Source of the DNA: a virus
Lineage: Duplodnaviria; Heunggongvirae; Uroviricota; Caudoviricetes
Length of the DNA: 11,283 nt
Virus record (IMG/VR): IMGVR_UViG_2675903654_000023
Strand: one strand, 5' to 3'
Both the position numbers and the translations under genes were made by a program. The notes beneath the pieces are model-generated. The model was not told where the DNA came from. It did not search any database and saw nothing but the letters and a program-made list of their open reading frames with translations. Below are positions 1,291 to 9,582 of the stretch, in pieces (within the stretch, counting starts at the first letter, position 1; the number at the start of each line of letters is the position of its first letter).

Positions 1291-1773
1291 CTATCTGGTC
1301 AGGGTGTCATACTGTTTTTCGCAGACTCTTCCGGCTTCGGCTGCCCGGTCAGCATACTCTGCCAGTTGTCTATTTCTCTCGAGAGATTTGCTGAACACGT
1401 CGGCAAGCAAAACTCCGGTATCTGCGGCTGACGCCCCAGCGCCGACAATGGCGTTATATTGCCTGAGCTGCTCACGGATGGCAACGAGCTGTCGCTGCAA
1501 CCTGCCAGCGCGAGCGGCAGCATCAAGAGCATCACTGCGCGCCTGATCGATTCTCTGCTGCGCTTCACGTTCATTGGTCACTTTCTCCTGTTCGTAGTAC
1601 TGACGAACTTTGTCTTCTTCGGCTTTGCGGTCTTCTTCCGCCTGCGCATACCCGGCATCGTACTGGCGGCTGCCGTGTATATTCCAGGCAACCACTCCGA
1701 CGATGAACAGAGCAGCAAGCATCAACACGATAAGCAGCTGTTTCCAATATGATTTTACGAATGTCAGGATCAT
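1291..1773 (-). CDS. Rz-like i-spanin (inner-membrane lysis protein)
   Basis: N-terminal transmembrane segment ([18 protein letters not shown]) followed by a charged, coiled-coil-like periplasmic domain. Its ATG overlaps the endolysin stop in an ATGA junction at 1770-1773. It is the last gene of the lysis cassette. Confidence 0.75.
1299..1574 (-). CDS. Rz1-like o-spanin lipoprotein embedded in a different frame inside Rz
   Basis: Lies entirely within the Rz gene in another frame. Encodes a signal peptide with lipobox LALAGC and a Pro/Ser-containing mature part. The longest ORF starts at 1574; an internal ATG at 1532 ([12 protein letters not shown]...) is the more likely start. Confidence 0.55.
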   Translation of the reverse strand: MNVKRSRESIRRAVMLLMLPLALAGCSDSSLPSVSSSGNITPLSALGRQPQIPEFCLPTCSANLSREIDNWQSMLTGQPKPEESAKNSMTP

Positions 1774-2399
1774 ACCGTCAGCACCTTACTGGCAGTGATG
1801 TATCGCGCTCGCCGGTCGTCTATGCCGTTCCTGCCACCATTGATAATCAGAGTTACACGAGCAATATCGCCGGTATACTTCATGCAGCCTTTGCCGGAGA
1901 AGAACCACGCCGCGCTACGAGCCGCGTATTCGTCCTGCGCCAGCAGTTCAGGATTCTCCAGCAGGTCAACTTTCAGACCGTTTCCACAGTCACGATAGTT
2001 ATTCAAACCGGTAATCTGGATAAGCCCGCGCCCACGGTAATTCCAGCCATCGCCGGGAGCATTGTTACCCATGCGTTTGCTGTATACCAGATTTGCGATC
2101 GCGCGCTGGCGCTCAAGTGGCAATGGTGGTTCACCAGCACGGCGACCCAGTGCATTAGCCTGCCCCTGAGTGAGACGCCCAGCCCGAACGAAGTTAGCTA
2201 GACCGCTGACACTGTAGTTGAAATTCTCCTGCAACCGGGTGAAACCACCAGACTCATGCCCGACCTGAGCAATAAACATTGCCTGATCTTCGGTTTTGCT
2301 GATACCAAACTCTTTCATCGCAGAAGTTATATGCGAGAACCAGCGTGCGGCCAACGCCTCGCTAATACCAGCAGCTCGCTGGAATTGTTTAATCTCCAT
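1770..2399 (-). CDS. Phage endolysin, glycoside hydrolase family 19 (chitinase-like lysozyme)
   Basis: The protein carries motifs recalled from GH19 phage endolysins ([24 protein letters not shown]). RBS GAGG lies 7 nt upstream of the ATG at 2399. It overlaps the upstream membrane-protein gene by 11 nt and the downstream Rz gene by 4 nt. Confidence 0.85.
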
Positions 2400-2697
2400 G
2401 TTTAGACCTCGTTATTTTAAAAATCTGCACAACGTTACCGCGCGTTTTAATAACCGCAGCAAGCATGACAGCGTTGATAATGACCTCAGATAAATCCACA
2501 GCCATTGGCGTGCGTAACCAGATTGCATAAACGACACGAACAGGAATACTGGCCGCAGCAACAATCAGGAAATAAGCAATCCACCCACCCCATCTTCGGT
2601 GTTGAGATCCGTTACGCTGGAAAGTGACAACGCGAATTGCTATGCCAGTACAAATAACTGCATTGGTGATAATTAAAAAAAGGTCATGCGTTACCAT
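2389..2697 (-). CDS. Holin-like small membrane protein (three predicted transmembrane segments, charged C-terminus)
   Basis: Three hydrophobic segments and a basic C-terminal tail ([19 protein letters not shown]). Sits immediately upstream of the endolysin and overlaps it. A GGAG-type RBS precedes the ATG at 2697. Confidence 0.55.
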
Positions 2698-3097
2698 CGT
2701 CTTTTCTCCCCGGAATTAACTCGCGTGGATTATCGGAACGGTGATAGAGCCATATACCAATACGAACAGCGACAATTGCCGACACGAACGCACCTGCAGA
2801 AAATACAATCCCTTTCTCGAATGAGTCCTGCGTGATGGTTGGAATCAGGCTAGCTATGCCGATAAGAATTGATGCTGCCGGTTTGTAGAAAAGAAGGCCG
2901 CAGAGAAAGCTGAGCATCGACAGAAGAACACGACGACGGATTGGGTATTCTACTGCAGAGGTAACAAAAATTACCGCACCAGCCAAAGATCCCAAAGCGA
3001 CCTCTGGAGGAACTCCTGCTATCACCGCAGCAAGAGAACTAACGCTAAGCCACTGATTTAATGATTCACTTGTTAGACCAGCAGACATTGCAACCAC
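2684..3097 (-). CDS. Lysis-associated polytopic membrane protein (holin or antiholin candidate)
   Basis: Four to five hydrophobic segments and a charged C-terminus; it is the first gene of the lysis cassette. The longest ORF begins at a GTG (3097-3095); an ATG three codons downstream (3088-3086) has a GGTGG Shine-Dalgarno 5 nt upstream and is the more likely start. Confidence 0.5.
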   Translation of the reverse strand: MVAMSAGLTSESLNQWLSVSSLAAVIAGVPPEVALGSLAGAVIFVTSAVEYPIRRRVLLSMLSFLCGLLFYKPAASILIGIASLIPTITQDSFEKGIVFSAGAFVSAIVAVRIGIWLYHRSDNPRELIPGRKDDGNA

Positions 3098-5694: not shown

Positions 5695-5713
5695 ATTGCA
5701 TGGAGAAGATAAG

Positions 5714-5971
5714 ATGCAGCAGTATCACTATCCACTGGAAGACGGATTTACCGAAAGGATTCACACGCCGGGAGGCGTCAGGTCACTGGTGGAGGGATCG
5801 CACTTGATGAAATTACTCCGGGATCTCGATAAGGATGGATTTAATGTCGATGGCCCACTTGCCGAACTGACTGCACTGATTAACTACGTCACCAGCTCAC
5901 AGATGTCTATGCGGGATCTGCAAACACATCTCGACTATTGTGCCGAACAATTACGAAAACAAACCAGATAA
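5714..5971 (+). CDS. Small stand-alone antirepressor C-domain protein (85 aa), probably SOS-controlled
   Basis: RBS GGAG (5702-5705) precedes the ATG at 5714. The protein aligns without gaps over about 72 residues with the shared C-terminal domain of the two larger antirepressor-like proteins, at roughly 45-50% identity by eye (IHTPGGV...LMKLL...DG..V.G..AELT...RDLQTH..Y). The LexA box lies immediately upstream. Confidence 0.6.
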   Translation: MQQYHYPLEDGFTERIHTPGGVRSLVEGSHLMKLLRDLDKDGFNVDGPLAELTALINYVTSSQMSMRDLQTHLDYCAEQLRKQTR

Positions 5972-5974
5972 GGT

Positions 5975-6003
5975 TTGCAATTACCAAGTGGAGTGCTTAT
6001 ATT
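5975..6003 (+). promoter_or_regulatory. Sigma70-type promoter of the plus-arm sRNA-like element
   Basis: Seen directly: -35 TTGCAA (5975-5980), 17-nt spacer, -10 TATATT (5998-6003). It begins 4 nt after the stop codon of the 85-aa gene. Confidence 0.5.
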
Positions 6004-6017
6004 TACCTTTGCGGTAA
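6003..6017. promoter_or_regulatory. Palindromic operator-like site TTACC-N5-GGTAA (copy 2 of 4), overlapping the -10/+1 of the sRNA promoter
   Basis: Seen directly: ATTTACCtttgcGGTAAAT, an extended 7-5-7 palindrome. Confidence 0.5.
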
Positions 6018-6130
6018 ATTTACATCGCACTCCTCTTGTGCCATAGTAATCGGGCACTGGCAAAATCCAGTGCCGGGATTGGCGTCCCGGATTACTACAG
6101 AGGCACATATGCCGCATAAGCGGTTTTTTT
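6010..6130 (+). ncRNA. Candidate structured small RNA / terminated leader (plus arm)
   Basis: Bounded by the promoter above and an intrinsic terminator (GCCGC-ATAA-GCGG followed by seven T, about 6111-6130). The core (about 6004-6097) is more than 95% identical to the inverted copy at 8993-9086. It contains stable hairpins (GGCACTGG-CAAAAT-CCAGTGCC and CCGGGA-TTGGCG-TCCCGG). No conserved ORF spans it. Confidence 0.5.
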
Positions 6131-6225
6131 ATGTGTAAAACGCACCTATTCTATGGTGGGCTGTGTGGGGGCACCGAAAGGTGCGCCGGGTCCTTTGTAG
6201 CCGGTTACGCCAACTCTGCACAGTT

Positions 6226-6256
6226 CACCACCAACCGATTGGCGTCGGTAGTGGTG
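6226..6256 (+). promoter_or_regulatory. Leader hairpin upstream of the Bro-N antirepressor RBS, loop UUGGCG
   Basis: Seen directly: CACCACC-A-ACCGA-TTGGCG-TCGGT-A-GTGGTG. The loop is identical to the hairpin-2 loop of the plus-arm sRNA element. The hairpin ends about 27 nt before the ATG at 6284. Confidence 0.45.
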
Positions 6257-6283
6257 ATTAACCTAACTACAAAGGTGATCACT

Positions 6284-6970
6284 ATGACTGCTAACGTAAC
6301 CCCATCTGTTTTTCATTTTGAATCAGAAGCAACCATTCGAGCCATTGTTATTGATGGAAATCCTTGGTTTGTTGCCAAAGACGTTATTAAAGCTCTTCAA
6401 CTGACAAACCCCACTATGTCAATAAAATCTCTTGATGATGATGAAAGGGCTAAATTTAACTTAGGCCGTCAAGGCGAAACCAATATTATCAACGAGTCAG
6501 GCCTCTACACACTGATCCTCCGCTGCCGCGACGCAGTGACACCAGGCACTATCCCCTACCGCTTTCGTAAATGGGTTACAGGTGAGGTTCTTCCTCAGAT
6601 CCGCCGCACCGGAAGTTACATTAAAAACTCGCTCCCGCAGGAAGAACGCATAAAGATGGTTGCCGACCAGGTAGCCAACGCCACGGCGTCAGCAGTGATG
6701 AAGGCGATGAAGATAGAGAACAAAACCTACAGCGCCCCGCTGAAGCCAGGCTACCGCAGCCTGATTCACTCGCCGTCTGGTGTTCTCGGCCTGACGGAGA
6801 ACTCACTGCTGATGAATCTGCTGAACCAGTTACAGGAAGACGGGCACGACGTATCGGGCGCGGCGGCGGAGCTGACCACCATGTTCTGCTACATCGTCGG
6901 TGTGAGCAAATGCCTGCGTGATATCCAGACGCACGCGGAGTACATCAACGACAAGGCTGGGTTCTTCTGA
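6284..6970 (+). CDS. Antirepressor-like protein: N-terminal Bro-N domain plus shared C-terminal domain
   Basis: Internal ATG of track ORF 6131-6970, with RBS AGGTGA 5 nt upstream. The N-terminus has Bro-N motifs (IRAIVIDGNPWFVAKDV...GLYTLILRCR...FRKWVTGEVLPQIRRTG). The C-terminal roughly 80 aa are identical to those of the convergent gene at 8144-8800. Confidence 0.8.
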   Translation: MTANVTPSVFHFESEATIRAIVIDGNPWFVAKDVIKALQLTNPTMSIKSLDDDERAKFNLGRQGETNIINESGLYTLILRCRDAVTPGTIPYRFRKWVTGEVLPQIRRTGSYIKNSLPQEERIKMVADQVANATASAVMKAMKIENKTYSAPLKPGYRSLIHSPSGVLGLTENSLLMNLLNQLQEDGHDVSGAAAELTTMFCYIVGVSKCLRDIQTHAEYINDKAGFF

Positions 6971-6993
6971 CGGGCGGCGGCACAGGGATGTGC
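6730..6993. repeat. Inner inverted repeat, left arm (partner 8121-8385)
   Basis: Seen directly by reverse-complement comparison. About 230 bp (6763-6993) are near-identical to the reverse complement of 8121-8352, with one mismatch noticed. Identity drops to roughly 90% over the preceding 30 bp and is then lost. It covers the shared C-domain coding sequence plus a 3' hairpin (GGCACAGGGATGTGCC). Confidence 0.85.
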
Positions 6994-7042
6994 CTTTAAA
7001 TAATTCTGTACAGATTGCAGACTGTGGGTGAATAGCGTACTA

Positions 7043-7057
7043 TTACCTCAAGGGTAA
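7043..7057. promoter_or_regulatory. Palindromic operator-like site TTACC-N5-GGTAA (copy 3 of 4), upstream of the central module
   Basis: Seen directly: aTTACCtcaagGGTAAa. It is followed by a second inverted repeat (ACGGATT-N14-AATCCGT, 7059-7086) that overlaps a candidate promoter. Confidence 0.45.
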
Positions 7058-7063
7058 ACGGAT

Positions 7064-7093
7064 TGGTTTCATTTTTATTAATCCGTGTAATGA
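7064..7093 (+). promoter_or_regulatory. Candidate promoter of the central two-gene module
   Basis: Possible -35 TTGGTT (7064-7069), 18-nt spacer, -10 TAATGA (7088-7093). This is a weak call from reading the sequence only. Confidence 0.3.
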
Positions 7094-7117
7094 ACTTATG
7101 AGATATGAGGTAATGTC

Positions 7118-7297
7118 ATGCGAAACGAAAAATTGCAGATGCGTAGAGCGCAAGCTGCCGCAAGACGTTCTTTCAATGGAAGCGTAGAGTACGTAAAAGT
7201 TACTATGACAAAAGATCACGCAAGTCGCGTATCCCGCGCTTTCTTTGATTCTCGTAACAATAAGGAAAATTATGAGTTCGTCTGCGTCGCAGAATGA
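7118..7297 (+). CDS. Small basic protein (59 aa), candidate antitoxin or regulator of the central module
   Basis: Absent from the ORF track, presumably below its length cut-off; hand-translated as MRNEKLQMRRAQAAARRSFNGSVEYVKVTMTKDHASRVSRAFFDSRNNKENYEFVCVAE. Strong RBS GAGG 7 nt upstream of the ATG at 7118. Its 3' end overlaps the start of the next gene by 26 nt in a different frame. Confidence 0.45.
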   Translation: MRNEKLQMRRAQAAARRSFNGSVEYVKVTMTKDHASRVSRAFFDSRNNKENYEFVCVAE

Positions 7298-7817
7298 TAA
7301 AAATCAAGTTGTCAGATATAAGGGTCGAGTGTTGCATACGCAAAATTTCTCGGCCCTTTGTGCATCTGATCTTGAGCTGAAGAAAGTATCTGATGCCTTT
7401 ACCCAGTATTGGAAAACGGGATACCATCCATCTCTTGGTAAAGATGCTGCATTTGCTCGTCCGACAGAAATGCTTAAACTAAATGTCAGGCATACTCATG
7501 TCGATAACCAAGACTATATTCCAGAAGATAGTGATAAAAAACACACTGGTAAAAAATCATCTTGGGATGCATGGAAAAATATAGCGTCTGTACAAGTAAA
7601 ATGCATACCAACAAGTGATTGCTTTTTAGTTTATTCGGTAAATCACAATCGTGATGCGCTGGTTATGTTTTTTGTTGACGCAGATGCTCACAACATAACT
7701 GAGCAAGAAGAGTTTAAAGAGGAAGCAATCACTATCAGTTATCAATTCTTTGAGAAAACAAAAACAGAACCAATGCCTTTAGAAGAAGATCTTTTTTCTG
7801 ATAAATGGAAGGAATAG
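7272..7817 (+). CDS. Hypothetical protein (181 aa), candidate toxin; weak YafO-like resemblance
   Basis: Internal ATG of track ORF 7245-7817, with RBS AAGGA 5 nt upstream. AT-rich coding sequence. Segments (GKDAAF...LNVRHTHV...CFLVYSV...ALVMFFVDADAH) resemble motifs I recall from YafO-family toxins; this is from memory and unverified. An intrinsic terminator follows directly. Confidence 0.55.
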   Translation: MSSSASQNDKNQVVRYKGRVLHTQNFSALCASDLELKKVSDAFTQYWKTGYHPSLGKDAAFARPTEMLKLNVRHTHVDNQDYIPEDSDKKHTGKKSSWDAWKNIASVQVKCIPTSDCFLVYSVNHNRDALVMFFVDADAHNITEQEEFKEEAITISYQFFEKTKTEPMPLEEDLFSDKWKE

Positions 7818-7837
7818 CCCGCAGCGCGGGCTTTTTT
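7817..7837 (+). terminator. Intrinsic terminator of the central module
   Basis: Seen directly: stem GCCCGC (7817-7822), loop AGC, stem GCGGGC (7826-7831), then six T (7832-7837). It overlaps the stop codon. Confidence 0.7.
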
Positions 7838-7909: not shown

Positions 7910-8071
7910 ATGAAAAAAGCATTTGCTGCACTGTTCGTTTTGTTGTCTCTGGTAGCTTCAACTCAGGCCTTTGCCGGTCGTTGTCAGCACGACAGCGATA
8001 CTGCCGCTGACGGCTCCCGCTGCGGTGGGCGTTCTGCGGATTCCCGCCCGGGCGGCGGTGGCATTCGTTAA
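7910..8071 (+). CDS. Hypothetical small secreted peptide (53 aa precursor, about 31 aa mature, two Cys), possibly leaderless
   Basis: Internal ATG of track ORF 7805-8071. Signal peptide MKKAFAALFVLLSLVASTQAFA followed by a Gly/Arg/Asp-rich tail. A candidate promoter (TTGACG 7869-7874, TATAGA 7891-7896) would place the transcript start only a few nt before the ATG. No convincing Shine-Dalgarno. Coding status is uncertain. Confidence 0.3.
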   Translation: MKKAFAALFVLLSLVASTQAFAGRCQHDSDTAADGSRCGGRSADSRPGGGGIR

Positions 8072-8094
8072 AAACAAGGCCGCGAAAGCGGCCT
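8070..8094 (-). terminator. Candidate intrinsic terminator downstream of the AntA-type antirepressor gene
   Basis: Plus strand AGGCCGC-GAAA-GCGGCCT (8077-8094). On the minus strand this hairpin is followed by TGTTTTT. A 12-bp perfect palindrome GTGACATGTCAC (8095-8106) lies adjacent. Confidence 0.4.
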
Positions 8095-8120: not shown

Positions 8121-8385
8121 GCACGTCCCTGTGCCGCCGCCCGTCAGAAGAACCCAGCCTTGTCGTTGATGTACTCCGCGTGCGTCTGGATATCACGCAG
8201 GCATTTGCTCACACCGACGATGTAGCAGAACATGGTGGTCAGCTCCGCCGCCGCGCCCGATACGTCGTGCCCGTCTTCCTGTAACTGGTTCAGCAGATTC
8301 ATCAGCAGTGAGTTCTCCGTCAGGCCGAGAACACCAGACGGCGAGTGAATCAAACTGCGGTAGCCGGGCTTCAGTGGGGCGCTGT
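8121..8385. repeat. Inner inverted repeat, right arm (partner 6730-6993)
   Basis: Reverse complement is near-identical to 6763-6993; see the left-arm entry. Confidence 0.85.
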
Positions 8386-8800
8386 ATTCTTTTTTGTCTT
8401 CCAGCTTGATCGCCTCCATAATGGCGGGCATGAAGCCTGACAAGACCTTCTCCACTTTTGTTTCTTGTTGTCTTAAACGTTTCTCGCATTCAATGAAGTA
8501 GCGTCGTACCTGACGACCTTTTTCGTTACGCTCGACCATCGCCAGCTCTTTGGCTGTATCAAGGGTGAGGTGGTACTCTTTGCGGTTGTGGCCGCCTCTA
8601 CCAGATGTTTGCTTTCCCAAATTGGAAAGCAAAATATAGTCTTGATTTTCAATGAATTCGTATTCTGATATGCGATTTGTAATCCATGCTGCAAACACCT
8701 TTTTAACACCTAAAAAAGCGTGCAGATCGCGGGCATTACAAAGTAGGGCTGTTTCGTTAGATATAGTGCCGTTGAATACGGGGATGAGTTGAGCGTTCAT
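8144..8800 (-). CDS. Antirepressor-like protein: N-terminal AntA-type domain plus shared C-terminal domain
   Basis: The N-terminus matches the AntA/AntB antirepressor N-domain pattern (LIPVFNGT...[10 protein letters not shown]...W...EYEF...[27 protein letters not shown]). The C-terminal roughly 80 aa are identical to those of the 6284-6970 product. RBS GGAG 8 nt upstream of the ATG at 8800. Confidence 0.85.
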
Positions 8801-8828: not shown

Positions 8829-8859
8829 CACCACCGCTGAGACCAATCAGATGGTGGTG
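8829..8859 (-). promoter_or_regulatory. Leader hairpin upstream of the AntA-type antirepressor RBS, loop UUGGUC
   Basis: Minus-strand reading: CACCACC-AT-CTGA-TTGGTC-TCAG-C-GGTGGTG. The loop is identical to the hairpin-2 loop of the minus-arm sRNA element, and the stem differs from the plus-arm leader by compensatory changes. Confidence 0.45.
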
Positions 8860-8958
8860 AACTGAACGGAGTTGGTCTTACCGGCCTAAGTGGTACCGGC
8901 GTCCTTTCGGACCCCCATTCAGCCCACCATAATTCTGGCATGACTGTGCTATACGCAT

Positions 8959-9080
8959 AAAAAAAACCACGTCTGGCGTGGTATGCGCCACTTAGTAATC
9001 CGGGAGACCAATCCCGGCACTGGATTTTGCCAGTGCATGATTACTATGGCACAAGAGGAGTGCGATGTAAATTTACCGCA
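8959..9080 (-). ncRNA. Candidate structured small RNA / terminated leader (minus arm)
   Basis: Inverted copy of the 6010-6130 element. Its own intrinsic terminator on the minus strand is ACCACG-CCAGA-CGTGGT followed by eight T (plus coordinates about 8959-8982), different in sequence from the plus-arm terminator. Hairpin-2 reads CCGGGA-TTGGTC-TCCCGG. Confidence 0.5.
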
Positions 9081-9087
9081 AAGGTAA
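9073..9087. promoter_or_regulatory. Palindromic operator-like site TTACC-N5-GGTAA (copy 4 of 4), overlapping the -10/+1 of the minus-arm sRNA promoter
   Basis: Seen directly: TTTACCgcaaaGGTAA. It is part of the outer inverted repeat. Confidence 0.5.
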
Positions 9088-9116
9088 TGATAAGCGCTAA
9101 GAAATATTAAAATCAA
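9087..9116 (-). promoter_or_regulatory. Sigma70-type promoter of the minus-arm sRNA-like element
   Basis: Minus-strand reading: -35 TTGATT (plus 9111-9116), 18-nt spacer, -10 TATCAT (plus 9087-9092). Sequence upstream of the -10 is not homologous to the plus-arm promoter, yet a promoter is retained. Confidence 0.45.
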
Positions 9117-9234: not shown

Positions 9235-9582
9235 GTGCCATTCCACGGCGCAGAGCTTTATGTTGTCAATCACAACGGCGAACCGTATACCCCAATGAAA
9301 CCTATCGTTGAGGGAATGGGGCTAGACTGGAAATCTCAACATAAGAAGATTTCTCAACGCTTCTCGAAGGGTATGGTGGAAATCACCATACCTTCTGCCG
9401 GTGGGGTGCAAGCCATGATTTGTATGGCTTTACGAAAATTGGCAGCTTGGTTGAACAGCATCAGCCCTAACAAAGTCCGCCCTGAAATCCGCGAAAGTAT
9501 TGAAACATCAACCGTATCGATATCGACACGGTTGATTATGACGGTAACTTATTTCCGTGTGTCCTATTTCTCCCGCCACTAA
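9235..9582 (+). pseudogene. Probable remnant of an antirepressor N-terminal (P22_AR_N-like) domain gene
   Basis: The track ORF starts at a GTG with no RBS. Residues about 8-85 (LYVVNHNGEPYTPMKPIVEGMGLDWKSQHKKISQRF...LRKLAAWLNSISPNKVRPEIRE) resemble antirepressor N-terminal domains as I recall them. The last roughly 30 residues look like out-of-frame read-through. It ends back-to-back with the convergent 98-aa gene. Confidence 0.35.

Follow-up and report, generated by a model that had tools for sequence, protein, structure and literature searches.

The window, by which we mean the whole 11,283-nt stretch of DNA that was analyzed, carries the host genes yfgH and yfgI at its left end. The remainder belongs to an E. 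coli prophage, an epsilon15/phiV10/TL-2011b-like (Uetakevirus-type) podovirus that is almost identical to Escherichia phage TL-2011b itself. For related phages, the 3' end of guaA is the integration site (PMC9782041). A cassette of two genes encoding proteins of 59 and 181 residues is located between the convergent genes of a BRO-N and an AntA antirepressor (Table 1), in agreement with the first-pass annotation of this DNA, which had placed it between antirepressor arms. The C-terminal domains common to the two antirepressors are arranged as an inverted repeat of 279 nt with 96% complementarity. With Rfam, two mirrored immunity operons were recognized in the window, each composed of a C4 antisense RNA, an a1/b1 target, and isrK, followed by the antirepressor gene.

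Table 1. Features of the two-gene cassette and its flanks (window coordinates)
Feature	Position	Strand	Remarks
BRO-N antirepressor gene	6281-6970	+	left flank of cassette
Hairpin GGCACA-GGGA-TGTGCC + A/T-rich tail	6979..6994	+	probable terminator of upstream BRO-N gene
-35 hexamer TTGCAG	7015-7020	+	17-nt spacer to -10
-10 hexamer TACTAT	7038-7043	+	final T shared with the operator as its base 1
Palindromic operator TTACCTCAAGGGTAA (TTACC-N5-GGTAA)	7043-7057	.	predicted site of prophage HTH repressor
Shine-Dalgarno GAGG for 59-aa gene	7107-7110	+	7 nt 5' of ATG
59-aa partner gene	7118-7297	+	basic product, pI 10.0; predicted antitoxin
Shine-Dalgarno AAGGA for toxin gene	7262-7266	+	inside partner gene; predicted translational coupling
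181-aa YafO-family gene	7272-7817	+	acidic product, pI 5.8; predicted mRNA endonuclease toxin
Intrinsic terminator AGCCCGC-AGC-GCGGGCT + T-run	7816-7837	+	right boundary of swappable cassette
AntA antirepressor gene	8144-8800	-	right flank of cassette, convergent with BRO-N gene

The two overlapping ORFs, the ribosome-binding site in front of the smaller one, and the strong intrinsic terminator had all been proposed before and were recovered in the ORF list and in the sequence. The ORFs are in different frames and overlap by 26 nt. Because of this overlap and the Shine-Dalgarno sequence of the toxin gene inside the partner gene, the two are predicted to be translationally coupled. Both start regions were conserved: the Shine-Dalgarno region of the 59-aa gene, TATGAGGTGATGTCATGCG, was almost invariant across eight relatives, and the toxin gene start region follows the pattern GATAAGGnnAAyTATGAG among relatives. 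The terminator stem comprises 7 bp, six of them G-C pairs (7816-7832), and the T-run then extends to 7837; the toxin stop codon TAG (7815-7817) overlaps the stem. Upstream, the stem of the hairpin at 6979-6994 is preserved in relatives by compensatory changes (GGCGCA/TGCGCC in locus L039). Owing to its weak T-run, this hairpin escaped the terminator scan. If it acts as a terminator, the cassette would be a separate transcription unit; with this hairpin after the upstream ant gene and the terminator after the toxin gene, it looks like a transcription unit of its own. A 53-aa gene downstream was considered as an alternative antitoxin and rejected, being located past the terminator and having a signal peptide-like N-terminus. 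The GC content of the module was 0.389 (0.375 for the second ORF), compared with 0.469 for the window, 47.1% for TL-2011b, and 0.595 for the repeated antirepressor arms, so the AT richness relative to the antirepressor flanks, previously judged by eye, was confirmed by computation.

The coding status of the small ORF was assessed from eight diverged copies. The median dN/dS was 0.26 in frame; for the two alternative frames it was 1.01 and 0.93. Within a close set of copies, 23 variable sites were located at third codon positions versus 8-9 at the other positions. By these measures the 59-aa ORF is a real gene, with purifying selection in its own frame only. The protein matches phrog_6685, a 59-residue PHROG with no function assigned (E 3e-45). 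It is annotated as hypothetical in TL-2011b and is absent from the PGAP annotation in the E. coli chromosome records examined.

Relatives of the cassette were surveyed in 74 viral-contig loci, one Serratia locus, and phage EC.W1-9; a scan of the genome collection yielded a single locus, from Serratia aquatilis. Every toxin relative examined has an upstream partner, overlapping or close by, with a size of 55-183 aa. The gene order, with the small partner upstream and co-directional, was conserved in all loci examined, and the overlap is 14 nt in distant alleles; conservation of the small ORF and its overlap in relatives, a point raised by the first-pass annotation, was thereby observed. The N-termini of the partners are unrelated, and a C-terminal stretch of ~30 residues is common to all of them. 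It carries the motif K-x-M/I-S/T-x-x-E/K-x-A/S-x-x-I/V-S-R/F and finishes in F/Y-D/E. Toxin subtypes are paralleled by partner subtypes. On the grounds of position, coupling, and conservation, the 59-aa protein is predicted to be the antitoxin, and the C-terminal ~30 residues of the partners probably fold onto the toxin.

Pfam scans of the 59-aa protein and of 21 partner proteins returned no family matches, and no DNA-binding domain was detected by Pfam in any of them. The N-terminus of the 59-aa protein is arginine-rich and basic (pI 12 over 23 residues) and could serve as a nucleic acid binder. A profile of the partners gave no match to solved structures in the PDB. The AF2 monomer model of the 59-aa protein was of low confidence (pLDDT 57) and uninformative on the fold, as would be expected of a protein that folds on binding. 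No alignment of the 59-aa protein to YafN was obtained by BLASTP. A resemblance of the partner C-terminal motif to the YafN C-terminus (ARLEEITRRA versus DHASRVSRAF) was considered and dropped; hhalign aligns the stretch, with an E value of only 0.51. As judged from these comparisons, the partner family is undescribed and has no relation to YafN.

The 181-aa protein matched the Pfam family PF13957 (YafO_toxin) with 26.3 bits (E 8.1e-6), a borderline pass only 1.3 bits above the gathering cut-off of 25 bits. The match spans residues 46-152 of the protein and positions 3-92 of the 101 in the profile. PGAP already applies the name "type II toxin-antitoxin system YafO family toxin" to the protein, both in genomes of E. 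coli and in the TL-2011b entry of RefSeq. The RNase family of the toxin is a known one. A subfamily profile was built from 29 members and searched exhaustively against 1.84 billion representative proteins. It retrieved only 127 clusters, ~50 of which are long-form (160-200 aa). The weaker matches are proteins of 125-150 aa with E values of 1e-9 to 1e-4; the six that were scanned are canonical YafO_toxin members (46-101 bits to PF13957), and one of the six has 30% identity to K-12 YafO (E 6e-15). When the profile was compared directly with K-12 YafO as a single sequence, the match was weak, with a probability of 12.6%. A confident AlphaFold model of the 181-aa protein showed a RelE/HigB fold with matches to HigB, RelE, YoeB, and YafQ. 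The resemblance to YafO, which the first-pass annotation had suggested, was thus borne out by the Pfam score, by the reach of the profile to canonical YafO proteins, and by the modeled fold.

In the alignment of the 181-aa family with K-12 YafO, the residues F43, G50, G56, H76, Y121, and H140 are common to both. Conserved His, Arg, and Tyr candidates in the 181-aa protein are H52, R73, H76, Y121, R127, and H140. The NCBIfam search gave no meaningful match for either protein of the cassette. A sequence search of solved structures with the toxin profile found none, the best match being an odorant-binding protein at E 0.07, and Foldseek against viral predicted structures gave no matches at E ≤ 0.001. 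We treat the 181-aa protein as a member of a divergent long-form YafO subfamily and not as a close YafO relative; its expected activity, judged by homology, is cleavage of mRNA and arrest of translation.

The cassette is laid out like a type II toxin-antitoxin pair, as had been noticed at first reading: the genes are adjacent, co-directional, and overlapping, the small gene is upstream, and the toxin belongs to a known family. The charges, with a basic partner and an acidic toxin, are the reverse of those in many type II pairs. Among known modules, yafN-yafO of K-12 (dinB-yafNOP) resembles the cassette in the order antitoxin then toxin and in its closely packed genes. YafO is a BECR-fold mRNA-degrading toxin encoded after its antitoxin, and its dependence on the ribosome is debated (PMC11980606). 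The 181-aa protein passes the PF13957 (YafO_toxin) threshold and has the RelE-superfamily (BECR) fold in common with YafO. However, the cassette toxin has 181 residues compared with 132 in YafO; it is extended at the C-terminus by a conserved stretch (PMPLEEDLFSDKW) and contains an extra insert of ~35 residues (~80-112). The cassette partner is a 59-aa basic protein that lacks a Phd/YefM domain and has no detectable similarity to the YafN of yafNO. In addition, the cassette is part of a prophage and stands behind a phage operator, whereas yafNO belongs to the chromosomal dinB-yafNOP operon. The ribosome-dependent mRNases HigB, HigB2, RelE, YoeB, and YafQ (5mje, 7nbu, 6af3, 1wmi, 2a6q, 4q2u) have 4-17% sequence identity to the 181-aa protein, which is larger than the HigB/RelE/YoeB/YafQ structures and has extra helices. 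In HigB modules the toxin gene comes first, the reverse of the cassette.

YafO-family modules are also found on plasmids of Klebsiella and Enterobacter and on IncF plasmids of E. coli, where a PGAP "YafO family toxin" follows an abutting or overlapping "hypothetical protein". The upstream partner was not YafN-like in four of the five plasmid loci examined, and YafO toxins therefore pair with varied partners. The plasmid toxins have the canonical length (136-152 aa), and their partners (175-205 aa) lack the C-terminal motif of the cassette partner.

The boundaries of the cassette were apparent from a comparison with locus L053. This locus matches the window with 85% up to position 7059 and with 98% from position 7832. 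Between these positions it carries a different allele, composed of a 108-aa partner and a 170-aa toxin with 33% identity to the window toxin. In other E. coli prophages, this 33%-identical allele stands in place of the cassette, with the operator and the terminator as the exact limits of the exchange. Among 5426 complete genomes of E. coli, 61 contain the window allele and 69 the other allele (~1% each). Phage EC.W1-9 has a third allele, located elsewhere within the same immunity region. It is very improbable that the cassette is a remnant that has decayed or become inactive and now lacks a function. The borderline Pfam score would be in line with decay; against it, every near-identical copy examined other than locus L046, where the toxin is cut to 112 aa, has two intact genes, between 17 and 25 residues, the His/Arg/Tyr candidates included, are invariant across alleles down to ~27-30% identity, and the small ORF is under purifying selection.

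The promoter of the cassette (7015-7043) was not detected in a consensus promoter scan because its -35 hexamer matches at only 3 of 6 positions. The same arrangement, TTGnnn, a spacer of 17 or 18 nt, and TAnnAT followed by the operator, precedes the cassette again and again in divergent loci, at least 13 in number. The first-pass annotation had assigned a promoter with operator-like repeats to 7043-7093. The first of these repeats is the palindrome at 7043-7057, and the promoter is located just upstream of the assigned stretch. The second leader repeat (ACGGATT 7058-7064/AATCCGT 7080-7086) was discarded as an operator: it lies in an indel-variable stretch and is not conserved among relatives. 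The phage-wide palindrome is thus the sole operator that is conserved.

With one mismatch to TTACC-N5-GGTAA allowed, five copies of the operator were found in the window versus 0.21 expected. TL-2011b has 14 copies versus 0.8 expected. The -10/operator junction is the same at three promoters of the window, namely the cassette promoter and both c4/antirepressor promoters (hexamer starts at 5975 on the + strand and 9116 on the - strand), and the same geometry was found in TL-2011b, at a leftward promoter next to its repressor gene. In TL-2011b, the operator copies precede most transcription units, and two copies on each side flank the HTH gene gp10, which encodes an HTH_3 protein in which no peptidase domain was detected. 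From this placement we infer that the operator is the binding site of the lysogeny repressor, whose gene is located outside the window. In the related phage ZX5, lytic transcripts fell by 99.97-99.99% on overexpression of the HTH repressor, and lysis was promoted by a BRO-N antirepressor (PMC9782041).

Of 34 related loci, 27 have the operator ahead of the cassette, 45-176 nt upstream of the partner gene, including alleles of 28-33% identity; the other seven have no palindrome near the cassette. The first-pass annotation had described the AT-rich unit as a horizontally acquired moron. It is AT-rich, but the persistent linkage to the same phage operator, in divergent alleles too, speaks against this reading: the unit is a regulated component of long standing in this group of phages and is swapped as a cassette.

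The organization of the region is reminiscent of the immunity I region of phage P1, in which a C1-controlled operon contains the c4 antisense RNA and ant, similar to the two mirrored C4/a1/b1/isrK copies in front of the antirepressor genes of the window. The C1 operators of P1 are scattered over many transcription units, and the spread of one operator type across many transcription units of a TL-2011b-like phage is P1-like in this respect. However, the P1 operator is a 17-bp asymmetric site, whereas the operator of the cassette phage is a 15-bp palindrome, and the cassette phage is a podovirus of the epsilon15/phiV10 type, unlike P1. We know of no YafO-like cassette in P1. For epsilon15, operator-like repeats have reportedly been discussed; a literature search found no paper on the YafO-like cassette or on the operator.

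Because the cassette promoter adjoins a phage-wide operator that is also found at the antirepressor promoters and the repressor gene, repression of the cassette in the lysogen is probable, as is its derepression at the same time as that of the antirepressors. With moderate confidence, we favor the explanation that the locus is a self-contained, two-gene toxin-antitoxin-like cassette with a YafO-family toxin and a minimal partner, controlled by the phage repressor and operator. The RelE/HigB-fold product of the larger gene would cut mRNA and thereby stop translation, and the 59-aa product would act as neutralizer by means of its conserved C-terminal ~30 residues on the toxin. As the partner has no recognizable DNA-binding domain, unlike the situation in yafNO, control of transcription would have passed to the phage. 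The putative sigma-70 promoter runs straight into the operator, and the cassette would accordingly be off in a stable lysogen. Its expression would start, along with that of the antirepressors, upon loss of the repressor (induction) or before any repressor has been made (fresh infection). Most likely, the cassette would then serve to slow host translation early and in a self-limited manner, or to compete with other phages.

A classical type II module that is expressed in the lysogen and serves in prophage addiction or in abortive-infection defense against other phages, as the first-pass annotation had envisaged, appears rather unlikely by comparison. The toxin-antitoxin layout with a toxin of known family and the GC content, low relative to the phage, are compatible with it. 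So is the presence of two very divergent alleles of similar frequency at one site with near-identical flanks, which is common for defense and immunity loci, and the RelE/ParE superfamily includes known defense toxins (PMC11980606). However, the overlap of the promoter with an operator that also flanks the repressor gene and marks the antirepressor promoters predicts silence in the lysogen, no PADLOC-DB v2 model (known and candidate defense systems) matched either protein or their neighbors at E ≤ 1, and the partner has no detected DNA-binding domain for the usual autoregulation. Addiction in particular would require the proteins before the element is lost. Repression could be leaky, in which case the cassette could be expressed in the lysogen.

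Through the phage operator, the cassette would be regulated jointly with early genes and induction genes, which would also fit a locus that is not a toxin-antitoxin pair at all. The YafO-like protein would then be an early phage RNase for host shut-off or RNA processing, and the 59-aa protein would assist it as cofactor or specificity factor, or would be an early protein with no link to it beyond the common operon. The partner is basic (pI 10), its arginine-rich N-terminus might contact nucleic acid, and it is dissimilar to any known antitoxin, all of which is in line with such a role. We consider it improbable, however, since the upstream overlapping partner is strictly conserved over toxin subtypes and combines a shared C-terminus with variable N-termini, a hallmark of cognate antitoxins, and since canonical YafO and the plasmid relatives likewise have an upstream overlapping partner.

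If the cassette is a repressor-controlled toxin-antitoxin-like unit, as favored here, its neutralizer would be an undescribed minimal protein, and its switch seems to be the prophage repressor and not the antitoxin. The module would then be part of the induction programme and not an addiction or defense device expressed in the lysogen; if the repressor wiring is wrong, the cassette is an ordinary prophage-borne YafO-type module. A more far-reaching version is that of a phage-owned toxin-antitoxin unit of a new kind, in which the antitoxin lacks DNA binding, the master repressor is in control, and the RNase fires only at induction or infection, as a translation brake or an allele-specific weapon with its antidote; the 59-aa protein would then found a new minimal YafO antitoxin family. 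This version we regard as tentative and rather doubtful. Its allele-specific element derives from the exact exchange of the two 33%-identical alleles between operator and terminator, which could point to a weapon and antidote between related phages. If the module is part of the induction programme, the two interchangeable alleles, each in ~1% of complete E. coli genomes, would permit direct tests of cross-neutralization between related phages. The role of toxin-antitoxin modules inside phages is still debated, and the cassette offers a concrete, testable case.

The leader of the cassette was also inspected for other elements. A LexA box at the promoter was rejected; the sole CTG...CAG pair is spaced by 9 nt and not by 10. 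A 9-nt complementarity between the operator half-site (7042-7050), which is probably located 5' of the transcript start, and the ribosome-binding site of the partner gene (7106-7114) was noted and set aside.

An allele with 33% identity at L053, a related viral-contig locus (2633-3501), replaces the whole toxin-antitoxin-like cassette of the window (7060-7831). The breakpoints between the two sequences fall exactly at the operator on the left and exactly at the terminator on the right, and the flanks of the swapped cassette are 85-98% identical. The alleles were counted in 61/5426 and 69/5426 complete E. coli genomes. The 53-aa ORF downstream is kept at the locus with either toxin allele. Its N-terminus resembles a signal peptide, and in the near-identical Escherichia phage TL-2011b it is annotated as a 'putative transmembrane anchored protein'.

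The operator palindrome TTACC-N5-GGTAA is strongly over-represented in the window (0.21 copies expected) and occurs at 14 sites in TL-2011b, where 0.8 are expected. Because most transcription units of the phage are preceded by this palindrome and the HTH repressor gene has copies on both sides, TTACC-N5-GGTAA probably serves these phages as their master operator. No such site was found at the cassette in the related loci L049-L051, where a different palindrome, TTGCTCAAATATGAGCAA, occupies the equivalent position and is possibly the operator of another phage background. Separately, the operator half-site plus one base at 7042-7050 (ATTACCTCA) was observed to be exactly complementary to TGAGGTAAT. 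Since transcription probably starts downstream of the arm at 7042-7050, this complementarity may be a coincidence.

On both sides of the cassette, the P1-type immunity I leader is present, in mirrored orientation. Judged by the Rfam gathering thresholds, isrK and C4 scored above and the c4 a1/b1 target just under its own cut-off. The two copies precede different antirepressor genes, of the BRO-N type on the plus strand and of the AntA type on the minus strand. These antirepressors have unrelated N-termini and one common C-terminal domain, which is encoded by an inverted repeat of 279 nt with 96% complementarity (6715-6993 / 8121-8399). A third, stand-alone copy of this domain (phrog_450) is encoded by the ORF 5696-5971. 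The 115-aa ORF may be a third antirepressor-like gene beside the immunity region, possibly truncated. Inversion of the segment between the further inverted repeats could occur via these repeats.

Features of the window and of related loci
Feature	Position	Strand	Description
Prophage lysis cassette	1291-3097	-	DUF2514 spanin-like gene, GH19 endolysin, two holins
TTACC-N5-GGTAA palindrome	3192, 5623, 6003, 7043, 9073		5 copies
Further inverted repeats	5992-6097 / 8993-9098		
Immunity I leader copies	6041-6235; 8850-9049	+; -	c4 a1/b1 target, isrK, C4 antisense RNA
TGAGGTAAT	7106-7114		Ribosome-binding region of 59-aa gene
53-aa ORF	7910-8071	+	GC-rich; 3' of cassette terminator; phrog_14503 'membrane associated protein'
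Hairpin	8077-8094		Terminator of converging AntA gene
115-aa ORF	9235-9582	+	P22_AR_N antirepressor N-terminal domain only
Palindrome TTGCTCAAATATGAGCAA	~60 nt upstream of partner gene		Loci L049-L051
71-aa second partner-motif gene	L048 1630-1845; L066 2584-2799		Two more distant loci

At the left end of the window, the host genes yfgH and yfgI (1-1071) are followed by the lysis genes of the prophage, and therefore the prophage boundary is near 1100-1290.

In L048 and L066, an extra small gene with the same C-terminal partner motif was found directly upstream of the usual partner gene, which suggests a duplicated antitoxin-like gene.
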